DNA of 64,000 nucleotides from a virus (taxonomy: Duplodnaviria; Caudoviricetes): IMG/VR virus record IMGVR_UViG_3300012979_001162, positions 32,001 to 96,000 of that record; one strand, given 5' to 3'. Positions 21,814 through 25,923 of the stretch are shown here, one piece after another; position 1 is the stretch's first letter, and each line of letters begins with the position of its first letter. The position numbers were made by a program, and so were the translations under genes. The notes below the pieces were generated by a model. That model did not search any database, had not been told where the DNA came from, and saw nothing but the letters and a program-made list of their open reading frames with translations.

Positions 21814-22905
21814 CTATATTATTTGATTATTCTGCAAATTGGATTGGTTATCATTTAAAGAGTTGTACCATTCTATAAAATCATCTATTTGCTTTTTTAC
21901 TTTTTCTGACTTCACAGGGTTAATCCACGGTATTCTGTATATTACAAATCCATTTGCGGTTAATCTTTTATCTCGTAGTGTATCATGTTCTTTTCTCTCT
22001 TCGTATTGATGCTGCTTCCCATCAATCTCAAGATCAATATATCCATCGATTAAAAAATCTAAAAAATAGCATCCTTGCTCATCAATGCCTATATCTGTTT
22101 TCTTGAGAGTATATTCTGGTTCATATTGTAGTTTATTATTTGTTAACACTCTCTCCCAAAATAACTCGGCATAACTACGAATCTTTCTTGTTTTCCATCC
22201 AATGTGTTTGCCCTCGTCAATCAATCTTTTCTGAACTTCTGTTCCGATTTTAGATCTTTTGGCATGAGAGACTTCGGATGTAGTAACATAAGATTCACCG
22301 AATTCATTTCTTAAGTCATTTATGGTTTTATCGTGTTGCTTAAGGTGGCTAGCATTAATGTTTGCTAGTCTGACATTACAATAAGGGCAAACAACAAAGT
22401 CAACACCTTCAACTTTGTCTAATGTGTAATGTTTTAAATTTCTATACGTTATCACACCTTGCACGTATAAATCTTTTGTACCGTTCGCATATTCATTGAA
22501 ATTTATACGCACATCACATTCATTTTGCTGTTTTTCAGTTTGTTGAGCATATCTTTCCCTCAAGGAATTTGATATTTTAATTTTACTTTCGGAAGTATGT
22601 ATGCGTCCTTTGTTGTTGTGTTTTGCAGCACAACTACTGCCGCAAAATCGTTTTCTTTGATAATCTGCAAAGCTATTTTTTGCACTAATTGGAATTAATT
22701 TTCCACACTCTTCACAACACTTCGTTACAATTTCTCTTTTATGGTTACATTGCTTGGCAACACCAATCGCTCGTTTCGGCATGTCATGCTCAAAGCCACA
22801 TATAGTACACTTAACATGATACATTTTATGACCGTCATTCGATTTATAGCCGCAAAGATACAATACCTTATGAATGCCTATAACCGTTCCTATGATATCA
22901 TCCAT
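21814..22905 (-). CDS. Putative homing endonuclease, Vsr/DUF559-like core with Zn fingers
   Basis: Start MDDIIG after GGAGGG; LDFL...LEIDGKQH...HDTLRD...GFVIYRIPW. Confidence 0.75.
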   Translation of the reverse strand: MDDIIGTVIGIHKVLYLCGYKSNDGHKMYHVKCTICGFEHDMPKRAIGVAKQCNHKREIVTKCCEECGKLIPISAKNSFADYQRKRFCGSSCAAKHNNKGRIHTSESKIKISNSLRERYAQQTEKQQNECDVRINFNEYANGTKDLYVQGVITYRNLKHYTLDKVEGVDFVVCPYCNVRLANINASHLKQHDKTINDLRNEFGESYVTTSEVSHAKRSKIGTEVQKRLIDEGKHIGWKTRKIRSYAELFWERVLTNNKLQYEPEYTLKKTDIGIDEQGCYFLDFLIDGYIDLEIDGKQHQYEERKEHDTLRDKRLTANGFVIYRIPWINPVKSEKVKKQIDDFIEWYNSLNDNQSNLQNNQII

Positions 22906-22933
22906 ATATTCCCTCCAATCATTTGTTTTGTTA

Positions 22934-23007
22934 TGGTACCAGATGTTAGTACTGCCCTGATCCTCGAAACCCCAAATTTCGCATGCTTCTTTCACACCCC
23001 ATCTGAT
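22934..23007 (-). tRNA. tRNA-Pro(UGG)-like with atypical T arm
   Basis: ATCAGATG/CATCTGGT acceptor, ACCA end, CGAAA-TTTGGGG-TTTCG anticodon arm; T loop reads GGCAGTA. Confidence 0.5.
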
Positions 23008-23060
23008 ATTTTGTAAGTTCTTAATTATAGGGAAAGAACTGTGACTGTAAGAAAACCATT

Positions 23061-23152
23061 TGGCTGGGAAGATGGGATTTGAACCCATGTAGGGAACTTC
23101 TTCCTTTGTGCCAGAGTCAAAGTCTGGTGCCTTACCGCTTGGCGACTTCCCA
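23061..23152 (-). tRNA. tRNA-Gln(UUG) with long variable arm
   Basis: TGGGAAG/CTTCCCA-GCCA, CCAGA-CTTTGAC-TCTGG, ATGGG-TTCAAAT-CCCAT; 22-nt variable region. Confidence 0.85.
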
Positions 23153-23240
23153 ATATCGAAGGGCGATTTTTAACTCTTTCGAGAGGCCAATCGCCGTAGC
23201 CTAGCAAATCGTATATACGATCAGCCGATTCATTATAAGA

Positions 23241-23336
23241 TGGCGGAAGACTTCGGACTTGAACCGAAACGCCGAATGACTTCGACTACTCATTGATTAG
23301 CAATCAACTGCCTTACCAAATTAGGCTTAGCCTTCC
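23241..23336 (-). tRNA. tRNA-Ser(GCU)
   Basis: GGAAGGC/GTCTTCC-GCCA, GTTGA-TTGCTAA-TCAAT, long variable arm, TTCAAGT T loop. Confidence 0.9.
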
Positions 23337-23357
23337 ATAAGTACTCCAACAACCGCT

Positions 23358-23879
23358 ATTGATAAGTAGCGATACGGTGATTTACCCTGATCCGCAACAG
23401 CAACACTACACAACCCGACCTTTTATGTGTCGTATATCGGGTAACGACTATCTCTGTTGTTGGCTTTATTGCACCATCCGTGAAAACGAATGGAGGAACC
23501 TTTACCACGACTAGTGGGTAGGCATTGTGGCTGGACTTACATCTCGGTGAGAAGGCCCTTCCACCCCAATCCGATAGGCTGTTCAACTCTCTCCATTTAC
23601 TACAGCTTCTTACAACGCTACTAAATACTTCGTTTGCAACCTCCATAATTAGCACTTCGTAGCACCTATCTCGCATATAAACCCTTGATTCGCTTATAAA
23701 GCAGGTTCAAGAAACCCTAACGAAATCGCACCGCAGGACGTAATACGAAATCTCAACTCTTCCCACACAAGGATGGGCGAGCAATGACTACTATCCCGAC
23801 ATACGAACCAGCTTTACACTTATTCGTGTCCGTTTTTGTTGTTTGCATAACCGCTCAGCACGGCATTGTGCTTATCAAT
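23358..23879 (-). ncRNA. Candidate large structured ncRNA (about 520 nt)
   Basis: 9-bp terminal helix ATTGATAAG/CTTATCAAT, many internal hairpins, H-type pseudoknot; no credible ORF; strand inferred from flanking tRNAs. Confidence 0.6.
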
Positions 23880-23889
23880 GTCTTGGCAC

Positions 23890-24420
23890 ATTTGAATAGT
23901 AGTAGTGTGAGAGAAAATTATGGGGAACATCCCCATACGAACGTAAAATTCGCATCCCAAGGTACTTCGTGTTGACGAAGCAACTACTAGCCTTGGAGAC
24001 GCTACGGCTCACTCTAAAAATCTCGTTTATTTCACAAGTTGTCATCTTGTTATTTCCACTACCAACGACAAAGATTTCTGCCGTTTCACAATTCCACCCT
24101 GGGACACTTACGCCGTAGCAGAGGTGCGGGTGGTCAATTTTTGACAACTTAATGTTGTCTACCAGTTGCATTTAGCAACGCAGGGGGTTTCGCCTATTTC
24201 GTTTTTCATAGCAAGCCTACATACGACCTCATCTTGCATTTCCTACCGGACTTCGGTTTACTGCAGACACCGAAGTGGACTCGTATGCTTCCAATGGCTT
24301 TCTTTCCAGCCTAGACCAAGTTCATCTTACACTTGGAGAATTTGTCATCATTTTATCCAACTTTTGATGATGACCCAAAAGCTCGTTGCGTTCATCTATG
24401 GGTTAGACTACTTGTCGCTA
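23890..24420 (-). ncRNA. Candidate large structured ncRNA (about 530 nt)
   Basis: Dense nested helices (GCTACGGC/GCCGTAGC, ACTTCGGT/ACCGAAGT, GTCATCAT/ATGATGAC, CCAAGG/CCTTGG); ends approximate. Confidence 0.6.
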
Positions 24421-24472
24421 TAACAATACCCTCCTCATAAGTATCTTATAGAAGCAACCCCAAATGGCGCTT

Positions 24473-24548
24473 TGGTGCAGAAGGTAAGATTCAAACTTAC
24501 GAATACTAGTTTTTTATCACTAGTGCTTTCCAACTAAGCTACTTCTGC
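24473..24548 (-). tRNA. tRNA-like element with 8-nt anticodon loop (GATAAAAA); possibly Ile-derived or pseudo-tRNA
   Basis: GCAGAAG/CTTCTGC-ACCA, D arm, CTAGT/ACTAG, GTAAG-TTTGAAT-CTTAC. Confidence 0.6.
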
Positions 24549-24857
24549 GCATGCCCCACACTTAACGTTAACAGGCTCCTACTGACCAGTGGGCTACGGC
24601 TATGACATTACTTCATTCTGCTTCGAAGGGGCATTTGTTATCCGCATTTCCTTACGGGCAAGACCGGCTTCAAACAAATGAGCTCTCAACTTCTCAAGAG
24701 TTTCTTTTAAATAATGGCTCGGCTCGTCACCCATTCCGTATGGGTCGCTTTATATGCCATTATGCCTTCTTACTTGCGCTCCATTTTCGTACATCGCTAT
24801 TCGACACGGTTGATACTCTTTTTTCATCAGTGGGATCACAACTTAACTAATCTGGTT

Positions 24858-24940
24858 TGGCAGGGGAGCGGCGACTCGAACACCGATAGCCTTTCGGCAC
24901 AGTTTTGGAGACTGCTGTCTTACCATTAGACGACTCCCCT
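24858..24940 (-). tRNA. tRNA-Trp(CCA) with extra variable stem-loop
   Basis: AGGGGAG/CTCCCCT-GCCA, GCAGT-CTCCAAA-ACTGT, variable GCC-GAAA-GGC, CGGTG-TTCGAGT-CGCCG. Confidence 0.85.
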
Positions 24941-25020
24941 ATGTAAGAGACTTCTAAAACCTACAAGGAAACTCCGTCTCGATGTTTTTTATACAGGAGG
25001 TACTCGTATGATGTAACGAG

Positions 25021-25097
25021 TGGTGATCACACTGGCATTCGAAGCCAGACTGGATGCGTTCTAAGCACATTGCCTCTACCTGTTGGGCTATGCGGTC
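25021..25097 (-). tRNA. tRNA-Leu(UAG) with short variable loop
   Basis: GACCGCA/TGTGATC-ACCA, ATGTG-CTTAGAA-CGCAT, 5-nt variable loop, CTGGC-TTCGAAT-GCCAG. Confidence 0.8.
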
Positions 25098-25108
25098 ATA
25101 ATTGGCAC

Positions 25109-25822
25109 TCAAACTTGAATGCCATATACAGAAAACCACGTCTGATGTGATTTTCTATGTTTTGTTGATGGAGGTTCTTTGAGCATAGCAGAGATAAGCT
25201 CTTTTGTTTTGTTTACTCCGTACTCTCGTACGGATTTGTTGATAGTATTTATGCCTAATCCCAATTTTTGGGCCCACTGTTGTCCTGTTAATACTTCACT
25301 CTCAACTTCAATCCAATTGACCTTGCCTGCTCTTCTAGAATTTTCCTCCAACGGAATCCATCGACAGTTACTGGGGGAATAGTCTACGTCGGGATCAATT
25401 CTATCTATGGTTAGAAATTCTTCGTACCCATTGTTCAAAGCCCACTTTTCAAATTTACCAGGGTTATCCAACCACTCTTGACACACTTTAATACCCTTTT
25501 CCCCATACCACCTATAGTTTTTGTCATTTGGATTATAGCATCGAACAATGATGCCTCTGAAGATCTTACCAAGACGACTATTCTCCCATTTATGCCTATT
25601 AATAATGTACTCTCCGTTAGTTCTTAAGTGGGTGCATTTATTTGATAGTTTGCTTGGTGCAGAAACCCCACTATATGTAAATTCTGTTTCAAAACCACAT
25701 TCGTTGCATACACATTTATAAATTCGATGTCTGTACTTATCGGTTTTATCTGTTATATCTGCTATTGTATAGATTCCGTGCACTTCTCCAATGTGAGATC
25801 TTGGATCAAATTTTTCTACCAT
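25109..25822 (-). CDS. HNH-type homing endonuclease
   Basis: RCYNP...YG.KGIKVC.EW...LTIDRID...YSPSNCRW. Confidence 0.85.
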   Translation of the reverse strand: MVEKFDPRSHIGEVHGIYTIADITDKTDKYRHRIYKCVCNECGFETEFTYSGVSAPSKLSNKCTHLRTNGEYIINRHKWENSRLGKIFRGIIVRCYNPNDKNYRWYGEKGIKVCQEWLDNPGKFEKWALNNGYEEFLTIDRIDPDVDYSPSNCRWIPLEENSRRAGKVNWIEVESEVLTGQQWAQKLGLGINTINKSVREYGVNKTKELISAMLKEPPSTKHRKSHQTWFSVYGIQV

Positions 25823-25839
25823 AATATTATGTCCTTACT

Positions 25840-25923
25840 AATCATGCTGTATTGTGTACTAATTATACCACAATCATTTTGTATTGTCAATATATTTCCG
25901 TAATCGTTTACAATCTATTTACA
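25840..25923 (-). promoter_or_regulatory. Modular promoter of the tRNA/ncRNA operon, operator inside the -35/-10 spacer
   Basis: Repeat 25907-25923; TTGACA-ATACAAAATGATTGTGG-TATAAT; second motif at 25840. Confidence 0.82.

Follow-up and report, generated by a model that had tools for sequence, protein, structure and literature searches.

The window analysed here is a stretch of 64,000 nucleotides and corresponds to bases 32001-96000 of a 162.6-kb IMG/VR phage record that has a completeness rating of 95%. Among the genes of this cattle-rumen phage, which lie mostly on the minus strand, are those for PolIII alpha, NrdD, an NAD-dependent ligase and a DnaB-like helicase. Bovine gut metagenomes are the main source of sequence near-identical to this record. 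The locus of interest is a minus-strand tRNA array that begins with tRNA-Leu (25097-25021) and continues with tRNA-Trp(CCA) (24940-24858), a 309-nt gap termed block C (24549-24857), a tRNA-like element (24476-24548), a gene-free gap of 1,139 nt (24475-23337), tRNA-Ser (23336-23241) and tRNA-Gln(UUG) (23152-23061), all on the same strand. The array is flanked upstream by a gene for an HNH endonuclease (25822-25109) and on the other side by a DUF559/homing-endonuclease-like gene (23088-21814), both also on the minus strand. Upstream of the HNH gene lies a minus-strand sigma-70-like consensus promoter (25862-25890) that was called from a pattern match alone (12/12 hexamer matches plus a TG extension). 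No tRNA interrupts the 1,139-nt gap in an ARAGORN scan of the window. The upstream half of this gap is block B, and the rest is block A (23337-23903). The block that the preliminary description had outlined at 23890-24420 is real, but its true span is from 24475 to ~23904, which is slightly longer upstream. Because an independent ENA assembly (L081) is 100% identical to the window over 23000-25200, block B is not an assembly artefact.

The tRNA-like element directly 5' of block B scores 56.3 bits with the Rfam tRNA model. Its stems are intact and its CCA is encoded; its anticodon loop is 8 nt long, and ARAGORN does not call the element (24476-24548). Similarly odd tRNA-like homologues, with abnormal anticodon loops, are found at the same place in two related contigs (L013:18337-18409 and L078:14135-14207); the window, L013 and L078 thus all retain the element where the RNA stretch begins. 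Other oddities were noticed in these arrays. Several related arrays hold tRNA genes with "anticodons" of 4 nt or 2 nt, and in the Rfam alignment tRNA-Gln(UUG) and tRNA-Trp(CCA) of the window have long extra arms of 19 and 10 inserted nucleotides, respectively, which are unusual for these identities. Block C is 67-74% identical in L013, L078 and L105 and has two perfect inverted repeats of at least 8 nt, compared to 0.19 expected.

Block B had been described as non-coding, and our analyses agree with this description. The ORFs of block B have no meaningful match to Pfam or PHROGs, and when used as protein queries they returned no homologue from 5.8 billion proteins or from phage genomes. The longest of them (98 aa) is interrupted by a 1-nt insertion at 24098 in three rumen runs, and its counterpart in the related contig L075 contains a 2-nt insertion and a 1-nt deletion. 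Given the lack of family matches and these frame-breaking indels, coding is excluded for block B; its relatives keep base pairs rather than a reading frame.

All helices that had been cited for block B are present in the sequence, either where they had been placed or within a base or two. In plus-strand coordinates, they are GCTACGGC/GCCGTAGC, an 8-bp long-range helix (24001-24008 with 24112-24119); CATACGA/TCGTATG (24220-24226 with 24281-24287), which encloses ACTTCGGT/ACCGAAGT (24250-24257 with 24269-24276); GTCATCAT/ATGATGAC (24344-24351 with 24367-24374); CCAAGT/ACTTGG (24316-24321 with 24331-24336); GACAAC/GTTGTC (24143-24148 with 24154-24159); GTTGC/GCAAC (24165-24169 with 24175-24179); CCAAGG/CCTTGG (23957-23962 with 23991-23996), which encloses a CTTCGT/ACGAAG hairpin; and ATGGGG/CCCCAT (23919-23937). 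Block B contains five perfect inverted repeats of at least 8 nt within 130 nt, while its dinucleotide shuffles have 0.77 on average and 0 of 500 reach five. The density of helices is thus beyond chance, and no such excess is found in three coding controls. The minus strand, which is the strand of the tRNAs, folds at -172.8 kcal/mol (z, -3.17), compared to -149.4 kcal/mol (z, -2.09) for the plus strand. The excess of inverted repeats and the stronger fold of the minus strand bear out the description of block B as densely and non-randomly structured and place this structure on the tRNA strand. In 200-nt sliding windows the z-scores are strong only at ~23800-24100 and are modest or unremarkable across most of block B; true tRNAs also score unremarkably, and the windowed thermodynamic z-scores therefore discriminate poorly here. 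The GC content is 42-47% across the tRNA and RNA region, compared to 31-40% in the flanking genes.

Relatives of the locus were gathered via PolIII, DNA patterns, exact-protein look-ups and homologues of the endonuclease-like neighbour, followed by local alignment. Several other searches returned little or nothing: blastn of the gap against INPHARED phages gave no match, BLAST of block B against the whole records of five relatives gave a 31-nt piece only, no related loci were found via the HNH protein, exact look-ups with the HNH protein and with the L075 ORF returned only the identical assembly or the same contig, and this phage lacks a homologue of the L075 ORF. Comparison of the loci that were gathered divides block B into four minus-strand segments, m1 (24185-24475), m2 (24137-24184), m3 (23943-24138) and m4 (23904-23948).

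Among these four, m3 is best characterized. It has a conserved fold of ~195 nt, for which a seven-helix model with a pseudoknot was tested on an alignment (A3) of four sequences that come from different contigs (the window, L075, L102 and L105), are 68-85% identical and include one truncated at a contig end. In this alignment, 90.2% of the cells are paired under the model, compared to 31-45% after the partners are slid by 1-3 columns; 11 pairs are changed on both sides, compared to 0-3 when slid; and the covariation score is 0.333, compared to 0.04-0.09 when slid. None of 500 shuffles reaches the paired fraction or the covariation score, and one of 500 reaches the number of both-side changes. 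RNAalifold independently recovers 36 pairs of m3, 10 of them with compensatory changes. R3, the covariance model built on the same four sequences, scores 201.6 bits in the window, 199 in L075, 187 in L105 and 157 in L102. The pseudoknot arises because the long-range 8-bp helix (24119-24112 with 24008-24001) is located within the loop of the 5' hairpin; this helix is kept in all four sequences, with 93.8% of its cells kept and with one-sided changes only. The most conserved stretch of m3 is the CCCGCACCTCTGCT segment, and the conservation of its loops suggests that m3 may bind a partner. The single-sequence fold had also predicted the helix ACGGC/GCCGU and, as an outer helix, GUGAA/UUUAC; both were rejected, since the variants at 24081 and 24087-24089 disrupt them and leave the local hairpin intact. 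On the evidence of the alignment, m3 is a conserved structured RNA in which compensating changes maintain base pairing across a few related phages.

m3 is also rare. Beyond the four sequences, R3 matches a weak candidate in L029 and, at 28.6 bits, a partial relative in L083 that has the 5' half only and lies directly after a tRNA-Gly. When IMG/VR was scanned with a degenerate pattern for the m3 core, L083 was the only match. A 25-mer of m3 has no match in IMG/VR, a 24-mer has none in GTDB genomes, an 18-mer pattern scan yielded two chance matches only, and a two-sequence m3 model (R2) found no further copies. A match from the metagenome scan, L076, was discarded as a chance match in coding sequence.

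The other three modules are distributed differently. m1, which is over half of block B, consists of a leader and four local hairpins (24374-24344, 24336-24316, 24311-24296 and 24287-24220, the last with an inner hairpin at 24276-24250) and holds the perfect inverted repeats I4, I6, I9 and I16. It is confined to this lineage: nhmmer finds no homologue of m1 in any fetched locus, and in the rumen runs m1 is seen in near-identical strains only. The structure of m1 is consequently predicted from thermodynamics and perfect stems only. m2 consists of two small hairpins, GUUGC/GCAAC and GACAAC/GUUGUC. It is present in L077 (43-89) and in L075, where the order is swapped and m2 comes after m3; in L013 and L078 only the second, GACAAC hairpin is found, after the tRNA-like gene. 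The first hairpin of m2 carries a compensatory change from C-G to U-A in L075, and at 24175 a strain variant retains pairing as U.G. m4 combines a hairpin of 8 bp (23937-23919) with a downstream U-rich run and was matched in a scan as terminator-like. This terminator look is limited to this phage, since the hairpin is kept in L075 and L002 without the U run; in L002 it has a compensatory change from U-A to C-G. The patterns of change in these sequences indicate that selection on base pairing keeps at least m3 and, to a lesser extent, m2 and m4. The covariation in m3 in particular shows that part of block B is under selection for base pairing.

Two further features were observed next to the GACAAC hairpin. 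Positions 24142-24150, in the 3' arm of this hairpin, are a 9-nt perfect complement of positions 24036-24044 in a conserved hairpin loop of m3. The complementarity persists in L075 with two wobbles despite the swapped order of the modules and may represent an alternative or kissing interaction. Downstream of the shared hairpin, L013 (18440-18500) and L077 (95-150) each carry a strong Shine-Dalgarno-like run together with an ORF of 12 codons, and the two predicted products have the residues EETPP in common; the feature is absent from the window. Because this ORF overlaps a hairpin of the GGAG-GAAA-CUCC type, its conservation may be that of an RNA rather than that of a peptide.

Block A is modular, too. 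It holds a module termed R1 (23671-23571) and, directly next to tRNA-Ser, a 3' module (23468-23338). R1, to which the covariance model of the same name gives 72.3 bits in block A, is ~90-160 nt long and comprises an outer helix and a GCYAC/GURGU helix, both of which covary, with a variable insert between them; its 3' side carries an almost invariant 19-nt bulge or loop. Copies of R1 are found in the window (23571-23671, minus strand), at L056:575-1243, L095:5980-6125 and L096:1283-1408, and in ~20 other contigs from IMG/VR or MAGs; alignment A1 contains 23 distinct copies, and further copies occur in contigs fetched later. L056 has four copies in tandem. R1 has no Rfam match, and at E≤10 only tRNAs were matched in L056:500-1700. 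The 3' module of block A is ~130 nt long, is closed by a CCAACAAC/GUUGUUGG helix and occurs in at least 13 phage contigs (L002, L013, L075 and L083-L093 among them; e.g., L091:11342-11470, L085:2863-2983 and L105:2997-3150), often alone between two tRNAs. In other gut phages, R1 or the 3' module usually occupies a single slot flanked by tRNA genes, which leaves only 6-20 nt free. The possibility that block B consists of diverged R1 copies was rejected, as the R1 model with filters off finds a single copy, which is in block A. It was also observed that the segment downstream of the four R1 copies in L056 (1300-1600) ends in a tRNA-like T-arm and acceptor with CCA, which ARAGORN does not call and which recalls the tRNA-like 3' end of T4 rnaC.

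We also examined whether blocks A and B occur independently in related phages, as the preliminary description had proposed, and found that their modules occur separately and in different orders. Parts of block A occur without block B in L013, L002 and L083-L093. L013, whose PolIII is 94% identical to that of the window phage, lacks m1 and m3. In L105, m3 lies 3' of the copy of the 3' module of block A and immediately 5' of tRNA-Ser, which is the reverse of the order in the window. The helices of block B are local, and block B is therefore expected to fold apart from block A; all supported helices are local and no conserved helix links the two blocks, in line with the earlier view of block B as a unit separate from block A. 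Judged by these distributions, block B is a set of four modules that are distributed separately and in variable order, and no single coherent ornate RNA.

The preliminary description had offered two possibilities, that block B is one large RNA or that blocks B and A together are one RNA of over 1 kb, and had likened the CCCGCACCTCTGCT segment to GOLLD-type RNAs. In an explicit form, block B alone or blocks B and A together (24475-23337) would be one large ornate RNA of the GOLLD/ROOL type, with block B as a variable 5' half and block A as a conserved 3' half, that folds or oligomerises as a single particle. The setting, a tRNA island of a rumen phage, is as reported for GOLLD and ROOL, the 1,139 nt contain no tRNA, and m3 is colinear with parts of block A in the window, L075 and L102. 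Against a single RNA are the lack of a conserved helix between the blocks, the reversed order in L105, the occurrence of parts of block A alone between tRNAs in many phages, the absence of m1 and m3 from L013, and the silence of the GOLLD and ROOL covariance models at E≤10. The Rfam search that had been suggested for block B was run with Rfam 15: only tRNA families match 22900-25200 at E≤10, and only tRNAs are found in the window at the gathering thresholds. For GOLLD (RF02032; gathering score, 150 bits), neither the complete 162.6-kb phage nor, under permissive filters, 22900-25200 contains a match at E≤10, and the suggested likeness to GOLLD is thus not borne out. For ROOL (RF03087; gathering score, 99.1 bits), the complete phage is likewise without a match at E≤10, a negative given by the model search only, with the controls silent as well. 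No tRNA (RF00005) or decayed tRNA is found within 24475-23904, as the tRNA matches at E≤10 are the flanking genes and ARAGORN finds none. Taken with the separate distributions, the variable order and the parts of block A that stand alone, these results speak against both forms of the one-RNA proposal, and we consider it decidedly unlikely that the stretch acts as one particle of a GOLLD or ROOL type.

GOLLD is phage-borne and found near tRNA islands, and block B likewise lies between a tRNA-like gene and tRNA-Ser. GOLLD has been described as having a 3' part that is conserved and a 5' part that varies; block A is more widely conserved than block B, and its parts also occur alone and in other orders. 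Unlike in GOLLD, the modules described here recombine independently and have no helices that link the parts. ROOL is associated with the rumen and with phages, is encoded next to tRNAs and has a pseudoknotted structure of ~580 nt, whereas the conserved unit here, m3, is only ~195 nt long and occurs in very few contigs. Block B thus resembles GOLLD and ROOL in genomic context and is a member of neither family. A related reading is that 24475-23337 is released as one ~1.14-kb RNA. This RNA would represent a new class of GOLLD-like RNAs of rumen and gut phages and would form a higher-order particle or scaffold acting on phage tRNAs or host ribosomes; block B would then be a hypervariable 5' half with m3 as its recurring domain, and R1 and the 3' module would make up the 3' half. 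We regard this reading as speculative and very unlikely.

Variation among strains in the rumen runs bears on how strongly block B is constrained. It should be noted that parts of the stretch without cover in these runs do not count as absence. Strain contigs from the runs carry 71 other letters in place of 24232-24298 or 452 letters in place of 23903-24299, or they join 24279 or 24373 to 24548; in the X17 contig, 97 other letters stand in place of 23904-23948. Such segment replacement among strains fits a weak constraint on much of block B. Of the 17 best-supported strain variants listed for block B, eight are at positions that the fold of the window itself leaves unpaired, and nine are in predicted MFE pairs; the 2.2-kb stretch as a whole has 39 further differences besides those listed. 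Pairing is retained by seven of these nine variants, among them all five in pairs with a probability of at least 0.7, and several of the listed variants become G.U, which is pairable only on minus-strand RNA. In a rumen metatranscriptome library, one contig of 929 nt covers 23785-24458, although it could derive from DNA.

Segment replacement of this kind, the mosaic presence and absence of the modules and their swapped order would also be expected if most of block B, and especially m1, were a non-functional spacer made of hairpin debris from homing-endonuclease-driven recombination, in which only short pieces, such as processing or stability signals, were constrained. Endonuclease-like genes lie on both sides of the array, m1 is without relatives, and the RNA region is only ~66% identical between phages whose PolIII is 94% identical. 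The five perfect stems of at least 8 nt, however, would need selection or a very recent origin to persist. In addition, m3 covaries, m2 and m4 each have one compensatory change, variants in confident pairs keep pairing, and the GC content is at the tRNA level throughout the block. With this evidence on its two sides, the spacer explanation is in our judgment unlikely.

The closest precedent by layout, as judged by analogy, is the tRNA cluster of phage T4 with rnaC and rnaD. These two RNAs of T4 (139 and 119 nt, respectively) are small and structured and lie on the tRNA strand directly after tRNA-Arg, and the T4 cluster includes the homing endonuclease gene segB, much as the array in the window is flanked by endonuclease-like genes. 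Block B is likewise on the tRNA strand, is contiguous with tRNA genes and has a homing-endonuclease-like gene in its cluster. T4 has only two such RNAs, while ~1.1 kb of concatenated modules lies here between two tRNA or tRNA-like genes, and the R1 model has no match to the T4 region. The T4 RNAs rnaC and rnaD are released by tRNA-processing enzymes. In a comparable manner, block B is probably a chain of separately folding small structured RNAs in a tRNA operon that are freed by tRNA maturation, and this is the reading that we prefer.

If block B is such a chain, the modules would be transcribed together with the tRNAs in one polycistronic transcript, probably from the promoter-like site at 25890-25862. 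The tRNA-like element with its CCA is presumed to serve as a 5' processing signal; cleavage just after it (24476), together with an RNase P cut that creates the 5' end of tRNA-Ser (23336), would then free the intervening RNA, as either one long RNA or several shorter stable RNAs. Recombination near the two flanking homing-endonuclease-like genes would be the simplest explanation for the gain, loss and reordering of modules.

The released modules could, in principle, be anti-defence RNAs, acting as decoys or sponges for defences of the host that target RNA or tRNA, such as anticodon nucleases, type III toxin-antitoxin systems or mimics of CRISPR repeats. Fast turnover and mosaicism are typical of arms-race loci, neighbouring tRNA-like genes have abnormal anticodon loops, and some phages have R1 in tandem arrays; these points speak for such a role by inference only, and no component of a defence or counter-defence system was identified. 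Of the explanations weighed here, we give this one the lowest probability. To our knowledge, none of the structured RNAs of phage tRNA islands (T4 rnaC/rnaD, GOLLD and ROOL) has a known function.

The locus adds m3, a new and previously undescribed compact covarying RNA that is absent from Rfam, to the structured RNAs of phage tRNA islands. Under the preferred reading of block B as a chain of small RNAs, it also illustrates that smaller RNA genes in a chain that recombines can look like a candidate "giant RNA" of 1.1 kb, which bears on how such candidates are read. Given its 23 or more copies, its invariant 19-nt loop and its tandem arrays, R1 may be the better experimental target. Together, the modules of this locus are defined RNAs with which the role of non-tRNA passengers in phage tRNA operons can be addressed.
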